This document shows positions 3,150 to 47,611 of a stretch of DNA of 47,714 nt, piece after piece. How positions within the stretch are numbered: the stretch's first letter is position 1; every line of letters begins with the position of its first letter. Origin of the DNA: a virus. The notes under the pieces were generated by a model. That model saw only the letters and a list, made by a program, of their open reading frames with translations. It was not told where the DNA came from and did no database searches. The stretch lies in UHGV virus genome UHGV-1354603. One strand, 5' to 3'. A program made the position numbers and the translations under genes.

Positions 3150-3755
3150 ATGCGCGAACTCACGAAAAAAGAAATAGAGGTTTTACAGCGTCATGCAAAA
3201 TGGCTGAAAAATGAAGAAGGCGGTGAAAAGGCCAACCTGCGGGGTGCCGAGCTGTGGGATGCCGACCTGCGGGATGCCGACCTGCGGGGTGCCGACCTGC
3301 GGGATGCCAACCTGCGGGGTGCCGACCTGCGGGATGCCGACCTGCGGGGTGCCGACCTGCGGGGTGCCGAGCTGTGGGATGCCAACCTGCGGGGTGCCGA
3401 CCTGCGGGATGCCGACCTGTGGGATGCCAACCTGCGGGGTGCCAACCTGCGGGATGCCGACCTGCGGGGTGCCGACCTGCGGGATGCCAACCTGTGGGAT
3501 GCCGACCTGTGGGGTGCCGCAGGTAAAATTCTATCCTTTGGCCCTATCGGTTCCCGACAGGGAATCACATATGTGACCAAGACCGAACGGACTATCCATG
3601 TCCGTTGTGGTTGCTTCTACGGTACGCTCGAAGAATTTGCGGCGAAGGTTGAAGAAGAACATGGTGATTCTCAACATGGGAAATCGTACAAGGCGGCAAT
3701 CGAGTTCATCAAGGCGCATGATGCCGCTTGTTGGCAAGATGATGTCGAAGAATAG
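3150..3755 (+). CDS. Pentapeptide-repeat protein (about 19 A(D/N)LRG/W repeats) with an about 80-aa C-terminal non-repeat domain.
   Basis: Consecutive A(D/N)L(R/W)(G/D) pentapeptides. The alternative-frame ORFs on the same DNA are repeat artefacts. Confidence 0.8.
3231..3520. repeat. Near-perfect tandem array of a 15-nt unit (gccgacctgcgggat/ggt), about 19 copies.
   Basis: Direct reading of the sequence; the unit equals one pentapeptide in frame. Confidence 0.9.
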
Positions 3756-21446: not shown

Positions 21447-21839
21447 TTAATGAAGATAAAAGATAACACAGACAGCAAGGCAGATGGCTGAGAAAAAGGT
21501 ATGGGCACAGCGGTCATAACGTGTTGCGATACGCCGCCAGTCCTTCAGTTTACTGAACGTATTTTCAATGAGATGCCGACGTTTATACAGCGTTTTGTCG
21601 AAAGGAAAGGCTGTATTTCTGGTTTTCCGAGGAGGTATGCAGACCGTCATCCCCCTCGCTTTCAGAGACTCCCGCAACCAGGCCGCATCATACCCTCCGT
21701 CTGCCAGAAAGGTGCCGTCTTTGGGAAGAAGGTGCTGGAGAATGGCCGCTCCCTTGTAATCGCTGACCTGTCCTTCGGTCAGCAAAAGCAGAACAGGCCG
21801 CCCATGTCCGTCGCAGACTGCATGGAGTTTGGAATTCAA
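21447..21839 (-). CDS. IS transposase orfB (DDE domain), fused to orfA by a -1 frameshift.
   Basis: ADGGYD...HLIENTFSKLKDWRRIATRYDR; the -1 frame read-through from orfA joins ...LNSKLHAVCDG. Confidence 0.75.
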   Translation of the reverse strand: MNSKLHAVCDGHGRPVLLLLTEGQVSDYKGAAILQHLLPKDGTFLADGGYDAAWLRESLKARGMTVCIPPRKTRNTAFPFDKTLYKRRHLIENTFSKLKDWRRIATRYDRCAHTFFSAICLAVCVIFYLH

Positions 21840-21856: not shown

Positions 21857-22204
21857 CTATGAGACGCGCGGAGCCCCCTTTTTGCGCAGACTTGCCGCCG
21901 TGCGGTGGGCCTTGAGGTGAGTGGAGTCAATCATCAGCGAGCCATCAAAGGGCGTCTGGTTTGCCAACTCGGTGAAGATCCTGCTGAAAACACCGAGCCT
22001 GCTCCACCTGACGAACCGATTGTACAGTGTCTTGTACGGACCATATTCCGCGGGAGCATCCTTCCACTGAAGTCCATGTTTGATAACGTAAAGAATGCCG
22101 CTGACGACGCGCCTGTCATCGGCACGGGGGATACCGTGAGAGCGGGGAAAGAAAGGGCTGATCCGTTCCATCTGGCTTTCGGAAAGGTAAAACAGGGTAC
22201 GCAT
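21857..22204 (-). CDS. IS transposase orfA (DUF4096-like N-terminal part).
   Basis: ...DDRRVVSGILYVIKHGLQWKDAPAEYGPYKTLYNRFVRW; ends at the slippery A_AAA_AAG site (about 21877-21884). Confidence 0.75.
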   Translation of the reverse strand: MRTLFYLSESQMERISPFFPRSHGIPRADDRRVVSGILYVIKHGLQWKDAPAEYGPYKTLYNRFVRWSRLGVFSRIFTELANQTPFDGSLMIDSTHLKAHRTAASLRKKGAPRVS

Positions 22205-22271
22205 GCGACACCTCCATGTCTTCAGTATACCCTGTTTTCACTTCATTGGGAATAATGAGTCCTGACCCTAG

Positions 22272-22594
22272 GAAAACTGAGGCAGGAATATATTGAACTA
22301 TTGCGAGAAAATAAGGAAATAAAAACGAATCTCGAAAACAAAACCAAGTTGATTGAAGAATTAACATTTAATACAGTATTGGCTGATATTGGACCATGCA
22401 AGATAAAAATTGATACACAAAAAAACATTTTGCCAGGATACTATTGCCCTAAATGCAAGCTTCCTCTTTCCCGTGGAGACTATGACTATCAGAATGACGT
22501 TTTAATATGTCATGGATGCCAAGAGATAAAATTACAAGGCAGAGATGTTGATTCAGCCAAGGAAATCTTTATTCAGACAAGGTTCCAAAAATAG
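22272..22594 (+). pseudogene. 3' fragment of the IS-disrupted gene (coiled coil + CPKC...CHGC zinc ribbon), AT-rich.
   Basis: In frame with 21302..21434 across the IS; the reconstructed product is about 141 aa. Confidence 0.55.
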
Positions 22595-22903
22595 ATTTCA
22601 TTTGCCTATCGTGCCATATGGAAAATACTATAATCCCCGCATAGAATCCGGCAGCGAAGAGAATCACACCAAGAAAAAACCAAAAAACTATAGCCATCTT
22701 TATCTCCATATTTTTTGATAAGCATCAACATAGACACCCTTTCCGGCCGCCTCACCAGCGGCCTTTTTCGTGCCTTCCATACGGCCTCCTTGTTTTTTCG
22801 ATCTCATATAAACAAAAACTTATCTGGTTACGCCCTATCGCCTGCGATTGCCACCCTTGCCGTCCATCCTAAGACATGTCATTTGAGGCGATGGAGGTAC
22901 ATT

Positions 22904-23356
22904 ATGGATTCGAAATTACTTAGATGTCTGTTGCCGATCATCAGAAATGGGCTGCGGCGCGGTGTAGGAATTGAGGATCTTGAAGGGTGCGGTGGATACG
23001 AACAAGTTCAAGATGCTCTTTTCTGGATGGAGGACAAAGGGCTTATCAAAGCTCAGTCCACTGGCGTGCTCGGGAGCTACGGAGACATCTACCAAGCCAC
23101 AATCACGACTCTTGGACAAGATTTTATGGATAACGATTATTCGTTCCCTCTCACTAAAATCGAAGTTACCCTGAACGAAAAACAGCTAGAAGCACTCCTG
23201 CTCATCCTTGTTGAGAAGTTTGGAAAACCCGGTGAAGCGTCCGCTGTCAGACGCCTTTTCGAAAAAGCCGGAAATGCTGGCGTCAATGCCTTGGCTACGG
23301 AGGCGGTCAAGCAGATGCTTGCACACTTGCCGGAAATTGCCAGAACGTTCATGTAG
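22904..23356 (+). CDS. Hypothetical protein.
   Basis: GGAGG RBS; ATG 22904 within ORF 22715..23356; its 3' end overlaps the convergent ORF 23186..23584. Confidence 0.4.
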   Translation: MDSKLLRCLLPIIRNGLRRGVGIEDLEGCGGYEQVQDALFWMEDKGLIKAQSTGVLGSYGDIYQATITTLGQDFMDNDYSFPLTKIEVTLNEKQLEALLLILVEKFGKPGEASAVRRLFEKAGNAGVNALATEAVKQMLAHLPEIARTFM

Positions 23357-23584
23357 AATATTTGCCATGAAGAACGAAACAGCCTGCGGCGTAAGTTGGA
23401 CGCCCTCAAAGTAGTCCACTTTGATAAAGCCGTTCTCCTCAAACTCCCAAAGCGCTTGTTTGAAAAGCTTCCTGTCGCCATCATAGCCGGGAAGCTTTTC
23501 AATAGGTATCGAGTGAGGATACGGAGCTGTCAGTAAAACCGTCCCCCACGCCTCCCAGAGATGGAAAAAATCTTTGCTGTGCAT
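23186..23584 (-). CDS. Hypothetical protein.
   Basis: ORF with plausible composition; overlaps the + strand gene by 170 nt. Confidence 0.35.
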   Translation of the reverse strand: MHSKDFFHLWEAWGTVLLTAPYPHSIPIEKLPGYDGDRKLFKQALWEFEENGFIKVDYFEGVQLTPQAVSFFMANILHERSGNFRQVCKHLLDRLRSQGIDASISGFFEKASDSGRFTGFSKLLNKDEQECF

Positions 23585-23714
23585 ACTAACCTCACTGGTT
23601 GTACTCTATTCCAATAATATCAATATATCAAGATACAGGAATTTCATTACCCACCCAGCCGCCTGTTGACTTTCCCGGCTCCCTGTGGTGTGGGGAGGGT
23701 AGGAGGATCAGACT

Positions 23715-24506
23715 ATGAGAAAACTGATTTTTATTTTGATGACATTTCTACTGGTGCCTTGGGAAAACTGTGTGCTTGCAACGGAAAAAACATCTATTGA
23801 TATTTATTCATTTTCAAAAGCATATTCTTTATTAAAAGTTCCCAATGTTACATTGGAGCGTGATGAATTTGAAAGCAAAAAAGAATTTGAAAAAAGAAAT
23901 AAAGAGTTTATTGAAAAGAGCAAAGAAAAAATTGCTCCTTTTTATATAGAAATTCCAATAAAATTTTGGTGTATCCCCAAAAATAAAAATTATAACATAG
24001 ATACTAAAACTTTTTCTTTTTACATTCCTATGTATTTTTCCAGCCCATATTTTGATTTATCAGAATCAAGAATAGGAAAAAATGCTATTCTACTGTCAGA
24101 AATAGAAAGAAATACAGGTTCATACGATGGAGAAAATGCTTTTGGAGTAAAAAAAACTGTTAATCGGATAGAAAAAGAAGAAGCCTATCTATTCATATCG
24201 AATGAAAAAAATATAAAAAAATACATAGTCAAAGATGGCGTTGATTACTTTATCAAAGTAAACATCAAAAACATTGATTTGGATAGAGCGAAATTTTTGA
24301 AGGACAATTATCAGATCGTTCTTAAGGTAAAACCAGAAAAATATAAAAAATATGGATACATATATGAAAAAATAGATTATAAGCAACCTACACTGTCATC
24401 TCCCGAACAGGTTAAATCTATAGAGAGGACAATAAATGTATCAATCATGGAGATAATGATTTTTTCTGGTTCTGGAGAACTTATTGCATCCCAGAAGATT
24501 CAATAG
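23715..24506 (+). CDS. AT-rich (about 27% GC) secreted Lys/Asn/Ile-rich protein with a signal peptide.
   Basis: AGGAGG RBS; MRKLIFILMTFLLVPWENCVLA signal peptide; very low GC versus the genome. Confidence 0.6.
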   Translation: MRKLIFILMTFLLVPWENCVLATEKTSIDIYSFSKAYSLLKVPNVTLERDEFESKKEFEKRNKEFIEKSKEKIAPFYIEIPIKFWCIPKNKNYNIDTKTFSFYIPMYFSSPYFDLSESRIGKNAILLSEIERNTGSYDGENAFGVKKTVNRIEKEEAYLFISNEKNIKKYIVKDGVDYFIKVNIKNIDLDRAKFLKDNYQIVLKVKPEKYKKYGYIYEKIDYKQPTLSSPEQVKSIERTINVSIMEIMIFSGSGELIASQKIQ

Positions 24507-24803
24507 CCTGTATTGACACTCAACCACTTTCATGCTTTCATGTCCGCAACGGTGCTCGAAAAACACCCCTTGGCGGATAACGCCACCCGACAGATTGGCG
24601 CTTTTTTGTGCCCTTTTCCCAAAGTCAAGATTTCTCTTGGCTGTGTTTTGGGCTATAATTGCATCTTGATGCCGGGTGTGCCCGATATGTCCAAGGCTTC
24701 GGCCTAAAGGCGGGCAGCAGCTCCAAGGGCTGTTTTCGACACCCGGCATTTTCTATTGGGGAAAATGCTTTGTGAACTCTCGAAAAGTTCCCTTGGAGGC
24801 ATT

Positions 24804-25709
24804 ATGACTACTTCCCTTTGCTTCAATGATTTCACCTTCTCCCCCGTCACGCGAGACAACCAGCCGTGGATTCGCGCATCTGAGCTTTCCCGTGCTTTGG
24901 GTTATGGGCGTGAGAACCAAATTTCGCGCTTGTACCGAAGCAACGCTGACGAATTTACCCCGGAGATGACGCAAGTTATTGAAATCGTCGACGGCCCCGA
25001 TTCGGGGCTTTCGGTAACAGCCCGCATCTTCTCCCTGCGCGGCTGCCACCTTCTTGCCATGTTCGCCCGCACGCCCGTAGCCAAGGCGTTTCGTAAGTGG
25101 TGCCTCGATGTCATCGAGCAGTACGGCGACAGGGTGCCCGTTGCCGAGCCCGTGACCATTGACGCCACCCGCCCGTCGCGCCGTACCGACCCTGAACGCA
25201 AGGCGCTCACGGCCATCATCAACACATGGGTGGGCATGGCCCCGATTCACTACGCTTCCGCACGGGCGCAGGTGAACGCGCATTTCGGCGTGGCTTCCGT
25301 TGACGCCCTGACCGTAGCACAGGTTAAGGATGCTATCCGCTGGGTGCAGGGCAAGATCGACGCGCTTCCCACTCTCCCCGCTTCCGCCCCTGCCCGCACG
25401 CTCCCCGTATCCAACATCTGCCGCGACCGGGTGAAGGAGCTGGAACGCCTTGAAGCCAAGTTCATGGAGTTCGCCGGGGAAACCCGTTCCCGCCTCTCCG
25501 AACTCAACGCCGAGTATATCCGGCTGAACCAAGGGTCATTTGCTGCTTTGCTCAGGACACTCCCCGCCGCGCATCCGGGGGATGTTGACAGGCTGTCCAG
25601 CGCGTTGAGCGCCCAGTCCTACGACGCCTACAACTGGATTGACGCCGGGCTGTCGCGCATGAGGCTGGCTATCGTCTCGGCACGGGCCGCAAACAGGATA
25701 ATGGGATAA
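24804..25709 (+). CDS. Bro-N domain protein.
   Basis: FNDFTFSPVTRDNQPWIRASELSRALGY...KAFRKWCLDVI. Confidence 0.7.
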   Translation: MTTSLCFNDFTFSPVTRDNQPWIRASELSRALGYGRENQISRLYRSNADEFTPEMTQVIEIVDGPDSGLSVTARIFSLRGCHLLAMFARTPVAKAFRKWCLDVIEQYGDRVPVAEPVTIDATRPSRRTDPERKALTAIINTWVGMAPIHYASARAQVNAHFGVASVDALTVAQVKDAIRWVQGKIDALPTLPASAPARTLPVSNICRDRVKELERLEAKFMEFAGETRSRLSELNAEYIRLNQGSFAALLRTLPAAHPGDVDRLSSALSAQSYDAYNWIDAGLSRMRLAIVSARAANRIMG

Positions 25710-43595: not shown

Positions 43596-43741
43596 TCACC
43601 TCTTCGCCAGTCTTCTCTTGAGCCACATGACAAGATCAAAATCGAAAACTTTCTTGAAAAACACACAAAGTCCTGCGAATGCGGTCAGCCAGAGAGCTAT
43701 GAAAAGAACCAATGCTATGGAGGAAATGAACAGGCTAGCCA
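43596..43741 (-). CDS. 48-aa hydrophobic peptide.
   Basis: MASLFISSIALVLFIALWLTAFAGLCVFF... Confidence 0.25.
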
Positions 43742-43962
43742 TCCGTTTCTCCTTGTCCGGTGGGAGTGCTGGGGGCGGCTGTAAGCCGCTCTTCATTTCT
43801 AACTAAAAAGTCCAGCAATTTATCATAGGCGCTCTGTCGCCTTTTTGGAGCAGACAAGAGCCGACACAAGGTAACGGGATGGATGCCTACGGCTTTGGCA
43901 AGGGCTACTTGCGTCCATCCTCTCTTCTTCATCAGTTCTTTTGCAGCGTATTCGATATTCAT
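43735..43962 (-). CDS. cro: Cro/Ner-like HTH regulator.
   Basis: MNIEYAAKELMKKRGWTQVALAKAVGIHPVTLCRLL; divergent from the repressor gene. Confidence 0.6.
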   Translation of the reverse strand: MNIEYAAKELMKKRGWTQVALAKAVGIHPVTLCRLLSAPKRRQSAYDKLLDFLVRNEERLTAAPSTPTGQGETDG

Positions 43963-44054
43963 GTGGAAATATTAGCTCATTCGCTATTCAATGGTCAAGC
44001 GAATTTGCAAATTAAAAAATTGCTTTTATTAGCGCGTATGCTAATGGTGTAACC
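43963..44054. promoter_or_regulatory. Divergent cI/cro control region with operators O1 and O2 and a 12-bp palindrome.
   Basis: O1 ATTAGCtcattcGCTATT (43971-43988); O2 ATTAGCgcgtatGCTAAT (44028-44045); AATTTGCAAATT (44003-44014); pR-like -35 TTGACC / -10 TAATAT on the - strand. Confidence 0.55.
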
Positions 44055-44801
44055 ATGGGTAAAACAGACTGGATCATTAAATTTTTTGAGTCCAAAATTG
44101 GGCACGGGAAGGAATTCGCCACACGAGTTGATATGGCGAGATTTTTAGGGTTGTCCCCAACGCAACAGACAAAATTGTTCAATTTTTTGAAAGGTTCAGA
44201 CACGCAATATAAGGCCGTCCTAGATTGGTTTGAACGACTTGGGGGCAAGTTCGAATCGGAGACTACACCTTCTAAAAACGTCTGCTTCATCGATGCGCGT
44301 GTGGCCCCCGCAGGCAATGCTCTCCCCCCTCCCCCGGATGAAGACTACCTCGCCGTTCCCCTTGTGGAAGAAGTTGGCGCGGGGCCCGGCATCATTCCAC
44401 AAAATGAACTCATCTCGTGGTTCCTCGTCTGGCGTCACCAGCGGGCCATTCAACACAAGCGTGACCTCATTGCCGTCATGCTGGGCAAACACTCAACGTC
44501 TATGGTTCCCACGCTCAAGCCACAAGACATTGTGCTTGTAGACCGACAAGATAAAGACGTGATGAACTTCAAAGGTAGGATCATGCTTGTCCTCGATCCT
44601 TTCGACGGTAGCGGGAAAATCAAGCGTGTAGCGGCAGAAAACCAGCCGAAAAAGCGCGACTATCGCATCACCTACTATTCGGATAACGCCGCCGAGAATC
44701 CCCCCGAGGTCTACAGCCTTATGGAAGACTTCGATGGCGACTGGAACAAGTCCATCGTCGGGCGCGTCGTATGGGCGTGGAGTGACGTGAGCTGCAAATG
44801 A
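44055..44801 (+). CDS. cI: CI-like repressor with a C-terminal S24 (LexA-like) peptidase domain.
   Basis: C-terminal MVPTLKPQDIVLVDRQ...GRIMLV...GKIKRV Ser/Lys dyad region; N-terminal DNA-binding part. Confidence 0.8.
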   Translation: MGKTDWIIKFFESKIGHGKEFATRVDMARFLGLSPTQQTKLFNFLKGSDTQYKAVLDWFERLGGKFESETTPSKNVCFIDARVAPAGNALPPPPDEDYLAVPLVEEVGAGPGIIPQNELISWFLVWRHQRAIQHKRDLIAVMLGKHSTSMVPTLKPQDIVLVDRQDKDVMNFKGRIMLVLDPFDGSGKIKRVAAENQPKKRDYRITYYSDNAAENPPEVYSLMEDFDGDWNKSIVGRVVWAWSDVSCK

Positions 44802-44833
44802 AAATCCCCGCCGGAGCGGGGAAGGAGAAAGAA

Positions 44834-45478
44834 ATGGAGCCACAAATTATTAGATTACAATTAGCACTTATTTTCCAAGATATCATTAGAAATCCTAATC
44901 TATTTATGGAAGAATTAACGAGTGAATTAGACTTATTCAAAGATTCTAATCCAAATTTTATTATGCATCCTAGCACAATCCCTCCAGTCGTTCCTATTGG
45001 GACACTTATGGGTACTAATAAAATGACAAGTCTATCTGCAACAGGAGAACGGATTGATTTTATTTGCTATAATGTTCCAAACATAGATAAAAATGTAAAA
45101 GATGTGTACGACAAAAATGTTCCAATCATTATTGACAAAGTATTGTCTAAAAAAAGTATAGGTCGTATCGGTTTTATATCGACAATATTTAGAGAAGATA
45201 AAAATCCAAATAATTATATAGAAAAAAATTATACTAATCATTCTATAATAAAAGATACGACAGAGATTTTTGTTAGATACAACAATCCATATAAATACAA
45301 AAATATACTTATAAACAAATTAACAAATATTGAAAGCCCATTTAAACCATTTCCAGATAACGATACAATAGGATGGTCAATAACAAAGGACATCAATACT
45401 TCTTTTAGAGATGATGGACTTTCAAAAAAATTTGTATTGGATCTGTATTCAAAAATAAAAGATTATTTATGTTCGTAG
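44834..45478 (+). CDS. AT-rich (about 29% GC) protein A of a cI-linked two-gene cassette; candidate defence sensor.
   Basis: AAGGAG RBS 7 nt upstream; GC hairpin at 44806-44821 between cI and the gene; no family recognised. Confidence 0.6.
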   Translation: MEPQIIRLQLALIFQDIIRNPNLFMEELTSELDLFKDSNPNFIMHPSTIPPVVPIGTLMGTNKMTSLSATGERIDFICYNVPNIDKNVKDVYDKNVPIIIDKVLSKKSIGRIGFISTIFREDKNPNNYIEKNYTNHSIIKDTTEIFVRYNNPYKYKNILINKLTNIESPFKPFPDNDTIGWSITKDINTSFRDDGLSKKFVLDLYSKIKDYLCS

Positions 45479-45485
45479 GTGAAAC

Positions 45486-46004
45486 ATGCTAAAAAGTAAT
45501 TTTCCGCAGTTTCCACCAGACCCTAATATTCTATTTGGAAAAGAGCAAAAATCTTCAACCAGTTCAGGTCAAGAACAAATATCATACCAAAAAACTTCTG
45601 CGTCTACTGCCTCAGTGGGTAATGAGTATCAATTTTTTGTTTATTTATCCAACTTGCATAATGCAATTATTCCAAGAATGAATGAGTATGAAAAAAATCA
45701 AGAAAATTTAGAATTAATTCTACACAAAGAAAAAGCGCTAGAAGAAGCAACACGAAGACTATTATCCATAAATATTATTTTAGGAATGATACTCCCAGCG
45801 GTTATTTTATTAATATTTTTCCTTTTTTGTTGGGTACATGCACCAGAAAATGTCGAATTATTCTTTGAAAAATATAAATGGATCTACTCTGGCTTTACAC
45901 TAGTTGGATTGATTGCTTTTATTAATCCAATATGGAACATTCACCAATACAGTAAAAGACTAGATTCTATTGAAAAACAATTAAAAATCAACGGTAACAA
46001 CTAG
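45486..46004 (+). CDS. AT-rich protein B: N-terminal Q/S-rich region, coiled coil, two C-terminal TM helices; candidate membrane effector.
   Basis: AGGTGA RBS; ILGMILPAVILLIFFLFCWV and FTLVGLIAFINPIW helices; terminator follows. Confidence 0.6.
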   Translation: MLKSNFPQFPPDPNILFGKEQKSSTSSGQEQISYQKTSASTASVGNEYQFFVYLSNLHNAIIPRMNEYEKNQENLELILHKEKALEEATRRLLSINIILGMILPAVILLIFFLFCWVHAPENVELFFEKYKWIYSGFTLVGLIAFINPIWNIHQYSKRLDSIEKQLKINGNN

Positions 46005-46099
46005 ATAAAAACACCAAAAAAGTCCCCAACAACAAAATAAAAATAAAAAACTTAAAAAATATTCAATAAATTTTCCCATAGGTCTTTTGGTACCTCCTC

Positions 46100-46124
46100 G
46101 CCCCTCCTCGTGAGGGGCTTTTTT
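46100..46124 (+). terminator. Rho-independent terminator.
   Basis: cccctc-ctcgt-gagggg + T6. Confidence 0.55.
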
Positions 46125-46198
46125 GTGTCCTGCCGGGCGTGACCGCCGAGCCTTCGTGGTGTCGGCGGTTATTGTTTTATCTTGTTATTATTGAATAC

Positions 46199-46239
46199 GC
46201 AAATTTACATTGACTCAATATTAGCGAATTTGCTATTAT
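46199..46239 (+). promoter_or_regulatory. pL-like promoter carrying a third copy of the CI operator.
   Basis: -35 TTGACT at 46210-46215, 18-nt spacer, -10 TATTAT at 46234-46239; O3 ATTAGCgaatttGCTATT (46220-46237); flanking GCAAATT/AATTTGC inverted repeat. Confidence 0.55.
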
Positions 46240-46581
46240 GGTTTCACAACGAACGGGGAAGGCGAACCCGGCGCGGCAACGGCCCGCCGAAAGCTGGAAC
46301 CGAACGGAGGAAGCCCCAACAAGTACGAGCACGGCAAGCGCAAGCCTTTGGGAGCGGGAAGCACGCGACGGCAGGAAATGGGGTGATGTGAAGACAGGCC
46401 GCGAGGGGACGGCGGGCCGAGCAAAGGCGCGGAAAGGCGACTGGGCGGCAACATGGGTTCCGAGACAAGCCCGCAACAAAACTCGAGACAACAATTTTCG
46501 TATCCCACCGCCAGCGCATGACGTTGGCGGGAAGGATGCGGAAGCATCCAGACTGAGCGTGGCTGGGCAGGGCGCGGCATT

Positions 46582-46611
46582 GCAAGGCAAGGCAAGGCAA
46601 GGCAAGGCGAG
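46582..46611. repeat. (GCAAG)5-GCGAG pentanucleotide microsatellite.
   Basis: Direct reading. Confidence 0.85.
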
Positions 46612-46615
46612 GCAG

Positions 46616-46749
46616 CGGTCGTATGAAAGGGACAGCGGATAGGCCGTTGTCCCGAACCGTGCGGGAACTCGCCCTGTACGGCAAGGGAAACCTTCCGGGA
46701 TTGGCCCGGTCGTATGAAAGGGACAGCGGATAGGCCGTTGTCCCGAACC
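46616..46749. repeat. Two identical 43-nt direct repeats (46616-46658 and 46707-46749), each containing gggaca...tgtccc hairpin potential.
   Basis: Direct reading: cggtcgtatgaaagggacagcggataggccgttgtcccgaacc appears twice. Confidence 0.85.
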
Positions 46750-46834
46750 ATGCGACGATGTGCCAGCATGGGGACGCGCGCCCGGCGGGGATTGGCTCCG
46801 CCGGGTGGTTTTTGACCTGAAAAGGATGTGACGA

Positions 46835-47611
46835 ATGAACAAATTGCAGATTTTCAAGAATGCCGAGTTTGGGGAAGTCCGGGTGGTCGAGCATGAAGGC
46901 CAGCCGTGGTTTGTGGCGAGCGACGTTGCGAAGGCGTTGGGATATGAAAAGCCCAACAACGCCGTCAATGAGCATTGCAAAAAAGTGAATAAATTCAGTT
47001 ACCCTAATTCGGGGCAGTTGCAGCCCTATAACATCATCCCCGAGTCCGACGTGTACCGCCTCGTCATGCGGTCGAACCTTCCAAAGGCCATAGAATTTCA
47101 GGATTGGATTTGCGAAGAGGTCATTCCTTCTCTTCGCAAGACTGGCGGCTACATGCTGACGAAAGCAGACGACACGCCGGAATCTATCATGGCCCGCGCC
47201 GTACTCGTCGCTCAAGAAACCATCGAGCGATTGAAGAGCCACACCGAAAAATTGGAATCCCGCGTTGAAGAGATGCGCCCGAAGGAGTTGTTCGCAGATT
47301 CCGTCTCGGCGTCCGAATCTTCCATCCTCGTTGGCCAGCTTGCGGCACTGCTCAAACAAAACGGCGTCAACATCGGCCAGAACCGCCTTTTCGAGCGTCT
47401 TCGCGATGACGGGTTCCTCATCAAATTCGGTTCACGTCGGAACTGTCCCACGCAGCGGGCAATGGACATGGGCCTTTTCGAGTTGAAGGAGCGCGTCATC
47501 AACAACCCCGACGGGACCGTCCGCATCACGCTCACGACCAAGGTCACGGGCAAGGGTCAGGTCTACTTCGTCAACAGGTACATTGGAGAGGCTCGCGAGG
47601 TCGCGGCATGA
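46835..47611 (+). CDS. Antirepressor (Bro-N + KilA-C-like), paralog 2.
   Basis: FGEVRVVEHEGQPWFVASDVAKALGYEKPNNAVNEHCKKVNKFSY; C-terminal region similar to the 25792..26622 product. Confidence 0.75.
   Translation: MNKLQIFKNAEFGEVRVVEHEGQPWFVASDVAKALGYEKPNNAVNEHCKKVNKFSYPNSGQLQPYNIIPESDVYRLVMRSNLPKAIEFQDWICEEVIPSLRKTGGYMLTKADDTPESIMARAVLVAQETIERLKSHTEKLESRVEEMRPKELFADSVSASESSILVGQLAALLKQNGVNIGQNRLFERLRDDGFLIKFGSRRNCPTQRAMDMGLFELKERVINNPDGTVRITLTTKVTGKGQVYFVNRYIGEAREVAA

Follow-up and report, generated by a model that had tools for sequence, protein, structure and literature searches.

In the viral genome UHGV-1354603, whose 47,714 nucleotides are referred to here as the window, two AT-rich genes, designated A and B, lie directly downstream of the gene for a CI-type repressor and on the same strand. 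The pair appears to be of a known kind, a repressor-linked defense cassette in a phage hotspot, with protein families that are new. Our preferred reading, for which we see about an even chance, is that A-B is a Rex-like exclusion or abortive-infection (Abi) system, made up by analogy of a sensor and a membrane effector, that would guard the lysogen against other phages; the expression "sensor plus membrane protein" is itself an analogy. Defense is ranked first because a portable, dispensable, lysogen-placed, and quickly exchanged unit carries the hallmarks of prophage-borne conflict genes. The support for it is indirect and comes from the constant pairing of A with a B-like partner, the recurrence of the pair after repressors, its restriction and reverse-transcriptase neighbors, and the hypervariability of the slot in which it stands.

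Organization of the cassette and its two proteins

Gene A (44834-45478, plus strand) encodes 214 amino acids (aa) and is separated from the cI stop codon by 32 nucleotides (nt); gene B (45486-46004, plus strand; 172 aa) starts 7 nt after gene A. The initial annotation had described an AT-rich pair of these sizes right after CI and on the same strand, which agrees with the open reading frames (ORFs) and with the GC contents of 27.3% for gene A and 30.4% for gene B. The GC content drops from 50-60% to 23-33% precisely across the two genes (200-nt windows drop to 23%) and recovers at 46100, and 1-kb windows are mostly at 46-64%. The figure of about 60% GC given for the phage as a whole is slightly high, as the remaining window is at 54.7%.

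The left edge of the slot that holds the pair is formed by a GC hairpin (UCCCCGC-CGGA-GCGGGGA; 44805-44822, plus strand) with a 7-bp GC stem and a CGGA loop; with its surroundings (61 nt, 44790-44850) it has a folding energy of -16.4 kcal/mol (z = -2.1). Directly after the hairpin comes the ribosome-binding site (RBS) AAGGAG (44822-44827, plus strand), ahead of the ATG at 44834. The right edge is the intrinsic terminator of the cI-A-B unit (46100-46124, plus strand), which consists of a 7-bp GC stem (46100-46118) and T6 and follows an A-rich spacer of ~95 nt downstream of gene B. A hairpin and a strong RBS before gene A, and a strong terminator closing the unit, were thus correctly recognized at the outset. 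The hairpin was ruled out as an intrinsic terminator of the cI transcript, since no T-run follows it on the plus strand and a terminator score is obtained on the minus strand only. Because cI and A lie on the same strand, 32 nt apart, with no plus-strand terminator between them, co-transcription of A and B from the repressor promoter in lysogens would be the simplest reading. The ORF of gene A opens at 44798 with an ATGA that overlaps the cI stop codon; this 226-aa version was rejected because all homologues start at the MEPQ methionine, which places the start at the ATG at 44834, and because the upstream ATG frame in the related contig L024 stops before the start of its cargo. An imperfect 16-nt direct repeat (44814-44829, GAGCGGGGAAGGAGAA; 46251-46266, GAACGGGGAAGGCGAA) flanks the cassette together with its terminator and the promoter beyond; it could be a recombination footprint or chance.

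An exhaustive phmmer search with protein A retrieved 112 representatives (clusters at 50% identity) at E<1e-3, 23 of them at E<1e-10, and nearly all homologues are 205-230 aa long and align end to end. In an alignment of 55 relatives, R111, G113, N161, D186, and N188 are invariant, and F13, P21, R73, D75, E144, N150, and G180 are at least 90% conserved. The protein lacks any hydrophobic segment and its AlphaFold (AF2) model is globular (predicted local distance difference test score [pLDDT] of 92.4, predicted template modeling score of 0.88), in accordance with the solubility first proposed for it. The model takes the shape of two tandem beta-alpha-beta(3-4)-alpha repeats that form one sheet backed by helices. 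Foldseek aligned it with TBP and AdoMetDC at template modeling scores of about 0.3, and a search of a viral structure library yielded nothing further; as modeled, A has a generic TBP-like pseudo-dimer or guanido-kinase-type architecture without a close solved relative. The conserved polar residues are all on predicted strands and form the i/i+2 pairs R73/D75, R111/G113, and D186/N188; such spacing in the predicted secondary structure would turn them to one side of the sheet, which could be a face for ligand binding or catalysis. An ATP site of kinase or ligase type was also considered, as 158 residues of A align with arginine kinases and McsB, but the matches are weak and the arginine constellation is not conserved, and no such site is claimed.

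In protein B, residues 1-42 are disordered and rich in S/T/Q. The AF2 model contains a helix at residues 43-118 that runs into the first transmembrane (TM) segment (TM1, about 93-117), a short helix at 120-129, and a helix at 131-171 that includes TM2 (about 132-150), after which the chain ends in an amphipathic helix. Hydropathy likewise gives two hydrophobic segments, so that the Q/S-rich N-terminus, coiled coil, and two C-terminal TM helices proposed at first all hold. Four B homologues from phage lineages keep the juxtamembrane TRRLL, the F..FC...HAP at the end of TM1, and the C-terminal HQYSKRL..IEK..K. The basic residues before TM1 suggest, by the positive-inside rule, that both ends of B are cytoplasmic, and this predicted topology leaves about 12-15 residues outside. 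With the partners in L041, L044/L046, and L047, window B shares 40-44% identity (E 1e-23 to 1e-49), and more distant partners have the same architecture without detectable sequence similarity. In the contexts that were read, about a dozen, every A homologue with available downstream sequence is followed by an abutting or overlapping gene whose product, of 113-213 aa, combines an N-terminus rich in S/T/Q/N with a helical or coiled region and with one or two TM helices. A and B therefore read as one portable, self-contained two-gene module.

Neither protein could be assigned to a family. Pfam, NCBIfam, and PADLOC (PADLOC-DB 2.0.0, 2023 release) gave no match to A and 0 matches to window B; Pfam gave none for 55 A relatives or for eight B relatives, PADLOC gave scattered single matches at E>=0.004 among the 55 A relatives, and Pfam and PADLOC were both negative for two plasmid A proteins. 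PHROGs returned for A and B weak matches only, to families of unknown function. The sequence profile search of the PDB at E<=10 returned 0 matches for A and nothing useful for B, and a word-indexed protein search with A and B found identical copies only. Among 50,697 GenBank phages, neither megablast with the region nor tblastn with A gave a match, and a scan of GTDB genomes with A was negative too. Searching the literature for the plasmid protein accessions and for phages of Bilophila retrieved nothing relevant, and no paper on the A or B families was found. The A family is large and without annotation in Pfam, NCBIfam, PADLOC, or any annotated PHROGs family, and it has no solved structure; the statement of the initial annotation that neither protein is a recognized Abi, Rex, or superinfection exclusion (Sie) family stands in these profile searches. 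The absence of annotation for both proteins, together with the few GC-rich stop-free constraints of AT-rich DNA, would also fit a stretch of non-functional imported DNA with chance ORFs. This explanation, to which we give virtually no credence, is refuted by the 112 full-length A homologues with their invariant residues, the fold modeled at a pLDDT of 92, the partner conserved at 40-44% identity across phage lineages, and the proper RBSs and terminator.

A scheme of action can be proposed from these features. Read-through from the cI promoter would supply low levels of A and B in lysogens. The cytoplasmic A, as a TBP-like pseudo-dimer with conserved Arg, Asp, Glu, and Asn residues on its beta-strands, would recognize an infection cue or ligand. 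A would control B, and the helical hairpin of B with its long stalk would oligomerize and either compromise the membrane or block entry, which would stop the infection.

Immunity region and the variable slot behind cI

The repressor gene (44055-44801, plus strand) encodes a CI-type, LexA-like (S24) protein of 248 aa with PHROG matches to "transcriptional repressor" (phrog_4, 1.2e-8) and "CI-like repressor" (phrog_6201, 1e-6). Its Pfam Peptidase_S24 match is sub-threshold (E 0.0076) and PF00717 is present in the CI of relatives. Nineteen IMG/VR contigs encode a CI with 73-100% identity to window CI. The Ala-Gly site VGAGPG, the serine motif S-T-S-M-V-P-T, and a downstream Lys are readable in the translation. 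With a Ser/Lys dyad, an Ala-Gly site, a divergent cro-like gene, and shared operators, the protein has the features expected of LexA/CI S24 repressors, and the S24-peptidase CI placed upstream of the pair by the initial annotation is borne out by the two PHROG repressor families and the visible motifs. The divergent gene (43735-43962, minus strand) encodes a cro-like helix-turn-helix regulator (Pfam HTH_3 1.5e-5; PHROG transcriptional regulator). The 92-nt oR-like control region between cro and cI (43963-44054) contains, by pattern search, two operator-like TTAGC-N6-GCTAA sites (43972-43987 and 44029-44044) and has 8-9-mers in common with the segment after the cassette.

On the far side of the terminator, an inverted repeat (GACCGCCGA...TCGGCGGT; 46141-46168) stands before the promoter and appears as invariant columns in an alignment of seven relatives with three operator types. 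It is followed by an oL/pL-like early promoter, TTGACT-18-TATTAT (46210-46239, plus strand), which is the best sigma-70 match of the region (10/12 plus extended TG) and encloses an operator-like site, TTAGC-N6-GCTAt, at 46221-46236. Motifs of the TTAGC-N6-GCTAA type have 3 matches in 47.7 kb against 0.9 expected, and 10/100 shuffles reach 3, so that the count by itself is weak; it is the comparison with relatives that makes the assignment convincing. A relative with the same CI (L019) retains the promoter/operator segment of the window, and relatives with a different CI (L001, L002, and L004) or a different CI N-terminal domain (L023 and L030) have another segment there, between conserved flanks. 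The replacement segment of L001 and L001's own cro/cI region have the motifs ATATACATATAC and ATACGTAT in common, and in each relative the operator/promoter segment has motifs in common with its own cro/cI intergenic region. Because the operator segment covaries with the CI allele, the cassette lies between cI and a second operator set, inside the immunity region, as rexAB does. The rexAB-like position suggested at first, with the unit ending just before a CI-operator-controlled pL-like promoter, is therefore consistent with the order cI, A, B, terminator, and oL/pL, with the lambda-like topology, and with the covarying operators.

The wider genome fits this arrangement. The genes running leftward are the cro-like gene, a cII-like gene, the DnaB helicase, and the late genes; cI, A, and B run rightward with the terminator, the promoter that bears the operator, ant, the genes for recombination, and the integrase. 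Encoded elsewhere in the window are TerL, a portal protein, an HK97-type capsid protein, the DnaB helicase, a CII-like regulator, and an integrase. The layout is that of lambda, and the phage is read as a lambda-like, temperate siphovirus. A host in Bilophila or elsewhere in the Desulfovibrionaceae is probable, because the sole genome match to window CI is a metagenome-assembled genome (MAG) of Candidatus Bilophila faecipullorum (67% identity) and because of the GC content. Downstream of the promoter at 46210 come a leader and the gene for the Ant antirepressor, followed in relatives by ERF and SSB recombination genes and the integrase. This leader (46246-46834, plus strand) is 590 nt of non-coding, purine-rich sequence of 62-65% GC that folds at -257.5 kcal/mol (z = -4.9, far above shuffles). 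Within it, the hairpin repeat CGTATGAAAGGGACAGCGGATAGGCCGTTGTCCCGAACC occurs twice, GCAAG is iterated 6.6 times at 46582-46614, and a terminator-like hairpin of 12 bp (46779-46807) immediately precedes the RBS of ant. Relatives with other CI alleles retain the first ~100 nt, and the sequence is a candidate antitermination or riboregulatory leader. Rfam had no match in the whole window or in 44700-46900, and no tRNAs were found.

The slot was defined as the interval from the cI stop codon, usually followed by the same 22-nt hairpin (junction GCAAATGAAAATCCCCGCCGGAGCGGGG), to the same terminator. In relatives, the hairpin 22-mer is found ahead of at least six unrelated cargoes but not in empty sites; the terminator at 46100-46124 is kept after different cargoes and also in empty sites. 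Apart from the window allele of A-B, at least eight other cargoes, or none, occupy the slot in related phages. A second A-B allele, whose A is 33% identical and whose B has 149 aa and a single TM helix, is carried by the Logan metagenome contigs L014 and L015, not by the IMG/VR contigs, and the CI of L014 is 99.6% identical to window CI. The remaining contents are a pair formed by a 293-295-aa SDH/ClpP-like serine protease (Pfam SDH_protease 1.1e-8) and a 66-aa gene (L023 5612-6699, L027 903-1984, L028, and L029), a DUF3800 protein (L026 5727-6665; 1.8e-18), an 85-aa CxxC Zn-ribbon-like protein (L024 5791-6048; weak PADLOC match to PDC-M14A, 2e-4), a 178-aa protein (L033 6075-6611), a 125-aa protein (L019 5795-6172), a 130-aa multi-TM protein (L038 4599-4991, in the MAG of Candidatus Bilophila faecipullorum), and small ORFs. 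In empty sites the cI stop codon is followed after about 30 nt by the terminator. The protease and 66-aa genes have 24-31% GC and no PADLOC match, and they may be another uncharacterized two-gene system. A GC-rich gene for a TIR-like nucleoside 2-deoxyribosyltransferase (Pfam 1.4e-20) is an optional insert between cI and the hairpin (L014 1335-1769, L029 5609-6043, L033, L034, and L035) and stands upstream of whichever cargo comes next.

Bases 44814-46107 are 100% identical in the window, L002, L004, and L005, with one difference in L001. The CI of these four relatives is a different one, and identity in the homologous flanks is only about 95%. The identical cassette between diverged flanks and beside a different CI therefore shows that the cassette has recently been transferred among phages that differ in immunity, with recombination in the conserved flanks as the presumable route. 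Conversely, sister phages with an identical CI carry a different slot cargo or none. By these comparisons the slot is hypervariable and A-B is a dispensable, quickly exchanged cargo.

The content of the slot bears on two other functions that may be considered for the pair. The first is superinfection exclusion at the envelope, in which inner-membrane B would block DNA entry and A would be accessory or stabilizing, without cell death. DNA-entry blockers are known in P22 SieA, T4 Imm, HK97 gp15, and lactococcal Sie2009, and the lactococcal and streptococcal Sie/Ltp genes adjoin the repressor as A-B does. B is a predicted membrane protein from the immunity region, and lone small membrane proteins such as that of L038 are among the other cargoes of the slot. 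Known Sie proteins, however, act alone to our knowledge, and A-B always includes a 214-aa cytoplasmic partner with invariant polar residues; with both ends of B predicted to be cytoplasmic, the 12-15 outer residues would offer little surface to an injection apparatus. We regard exclusion of this kind as distinctly unlikely. The second is a role in the phage's own lysogeny-lysis switch or induction, for which the constant linkage to cI in six lineages would be natural. There is also a precedent, since a second role for lambda RexA, acting on CI/Cro, is cited in PMC12894663. Because sister phages with an identical CI carry other cargo or none, A-B would be dispensable for the switch, and small plasmids and a chromosomal island, where its neighbor is a restriction enzyme, carry the same pair without a repressor; a switch function is accordingly a very improbable explanation.

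Occurrence of the pair outside the window

The nearest relatives of A (P0006, P0007, P0008, P0009, and P0011) are 31-34% identical to it in pairwise comparison. The order CI-A-B on the same strand was observed in 6/6 of the nearest lineages with readable upstream sequence, namely the window and these five; the contig of a seventh candidate lineage, P0012, is too short to tell. The repressors upstream of P0006, P0007, P0008, P0009, and P0011 have 219, 217, 227, 234, and 248 or 125 aa, and all except the 125-aa one have a Peptidase_S24 domain or near-identity to window CI. The repressors of the six lineages are 25-42% identical to each other or unrelated, and in the P0006-P0009 and P0011 loci the repressor is flanked on its other side by divergent cro and cII-like genes. 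The A-B genes have 27-36% GC in every phage lineage, even though the A proteins are only about one-third identical.

The pair also occurs on other mobile elements or islands. In a contig that spans at least 56 kb and is assigned to an Oscillospiraceae MAG, A-B stands between an MmeI-type restriction-modification enzyme and a resolvase; at another locus it follows an HSDR_N_2 protein and a DUF4428/YbjQ protein, and at yet another a 505-aa reverse transcriptase. Like the TIR-like deoxyribosyltransferase gene of the slot, these neighbors are of the conflict type. The pair is furthermore the sole cargo beside replication and mobilization functions on ColE1/MOB plasmids of 2.6-4 kb from E. coli, Salmonella, Klebsiella, Shigella, Enterobacter, and Rahnella, for example at 988-2045 of L039 (CP134916.1) and 327-1408 of L040 (NZ_CP100519.1). 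At least four diverged alleles occur on these plasmids, all annotated "hypothetical protein," and one plasmid allele is carried by 6/5,426 complete E. coli genomes. In a separate observation, a phage with CI-A-B (L044 8397-14977; L045) also carries downstream a SocA/Panacea-domain gene, two DarT genes, and a Macro-domain gene, so that its early region reads as a cluster of conflict genes.

Several points weigh against a role in defense. The link of A-B with defense genes is anecdotal rather than statistical and depends on a handful of contexts, and none of the slot cargoes other than A-B is a validated defense system. No PADLOC 2.0.0 model matches A, and PADLOC returned weak matches for eight B relatives that point to CorA-like, 4TM-effector, and LmuB proteins (E 0.0005-0.009). 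The model of B is a single-sequence prediction with a pLDDT of 71, and the host assignment depends on a single MAG match at 67% CI identity. The mini-plasmids count on the same side: a small membrane protein with a soluble partner, carried as the sole cargo of 2.6-4 kb replicons in several enterobacterial genera, is accommodated equally well by a toxin-antitoxin (TA)-like addiction or maintenance module, in which B would be a membrane toxin and A its neutralizer (or the reverse) and which would stabilize the plasmid or prophage, any anti-phage effect being secondary. The tight coupling or overlap of the genes and the location of the pair on mobile elements throughout are in keeping with this idea, which we consider unlikely but deserving of serious attention. 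It leaves unexplained the specific, cargo-swapping slot behind the repressor in the nearest lineages; neither A nor B contains a toxin or antitoxin domain in Pfam or NCBIfam, and a simple antitoxin would be expected to be smaller than A, with its 214 aa and conserved polar surface. The TA-like and abortive-infection readings are compatible, as many TA systems act as Abi.

Comparison with known systems

Repressor-linked defense pairs of a cytoplasmic and a membrane protein have been validated experimentally for lambda RexAB, for P. putida RexABpp (PMC12894663), and for gp30/31 of mycobacteriophage Sbash with gp43/44 of Gordonia phage CarolAnn (PMC6426596). Lambda RexAB and A-B both consist of a cytoplasmic protein and a small inner-membrane protein encoded on the same strand downstream of CI and followed by a terminator and an oL/pL-type element; in both, the genes are AT-rich relative to the phage and the presumed logic leads from a sensor to a membrane effector. 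A RexAB-type arrangement, with a cytoplasmic and membrane pair downstream of cI in the immunity region, can be read in all six lineages. Homology of A to RexA/DUF4747 was considered and rejected: Pfam found no RexA or DUF4747 profile in A or its 55 relatives, the PDB sequence profile search returned 0 matches at E<=10, and RexA (8TWQ) was not among the fold matches. RexA has a two-domain dimeric DNA-clamp fold, unlike the TBP-like A, and RexB has four TM segments, in contrast to the two hydrophobic segments of B, which has no Pfam RexB match. The pair would accordingly be analogous to RexAB and not homologous.

The slot also resembles the P2 and P4 prophage and satellite defense hotspots (Rousset et al. 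2022, PMC9122126) in being a fixed site between conserved phage genes that holds alternative, unrelated, low-GC cargoes or is empty. It differs from them in lying inside the immunity region, from cI to the terminator, and in having its own conserved hairpin/RBS junction. A small membrane protein with a soluble partner is also found in Kiwa (KwaA, the membrane protein, with KwaB), in the 2TM effectors of CBASS/Pycsar, and in CRISPR-associated CorA. The long helix of B that runs into TM1, the short loop, and TM2 recall the C-terminus of CorA, and two B homologues have weak PADLOC "CorA-like" matches below significance (E 0.003-0.006), with none for window B; support for CorA is otherwise missing from B, which has no Pfam CorA match, no PDB CorA match by profile, and no GMN motif, the loop after TM1 reading HAPENV. 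The single KwaB match among 55 A relatives (E 0.004) is noise, and no cyclase or nucleotide-signaling gene stands beside A-B, unlike in CBASS/Pycsar. Lactococcal AbiT is a very AT-rich two-gene abortive-infection system of similar sizes, with AbiTi of 127 aa and AbiTii of 213 aa. AbiTi is described as endoribonuclease-like, and relatives of AbiTii have HEPN domains (PMC13064643). AbiT was rejected as the identity of A-B on these differences, on the reversed gene order, and on the lack of a match in PADLOC and Pfam.

A more far-reaching version of the Rex-like proposal is that A-B constitutes a new and broadly distributed class of abortive-infection or exclusion system, ranging over Desulfovibrionaceae phages, Oscillospiraceae chromosomes, and enterobacterial mini-plasmids. 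Sensor A would read a nucleic-acid or nucleotide cue on the face of its beta-sheet, and effector B would combine a CorA-like stalk with a hairpin. One branch would be the standard occupant of the interval from cI to oL in several unrelated lambda-like phages, as a non-homologous replacement of RexAB, and the 27-36% GC would be maintained for a regulatory function. We hold this version tentatively, as a real possibility that we would not expect to prevail as a whole.

Two other features of the window were recorded. A pentapeptide-repeat protein (3150-3755, plus strand; Pfam 1.7e-47) is encoded in the early rightward operon, and its gene contains a tandem DNA repeat of 15 nt x 19 (3231-3519) whose copy number appears to differ in relatives, as judged from staggered blastn matches; the protein is a candidate DNA mimic or anti-restriction-type protein. 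A DDE transposase fragment (21447-21839, minus strand; PF01609 4.5e-17) lies beside a stretch of 40-43% GC (22000-25000) with two plus-strand ORFs (22715-23356 and 23715-24506) without a Pfam match, and this stretch, next to the tail genes, is a possible second cargo region.

After about seventy years of work on RexAB, there is still no settled mechanism for it. An unrelated pair that recurs in the RexAB niche in six lineages would reveal what is selected there, and the natural occurrence of A-B on 3-kb plasmids of E. coli, Salmonella, and Klebsiella makes the pair readily clonable for coliphage panels. The slot from cI to the terminator, for its part, is a ready-made discovery site with about nine unannotated cargoes, found in what are probably phages of Bilophila, a gut genus of clinical relevance that has been little studied.

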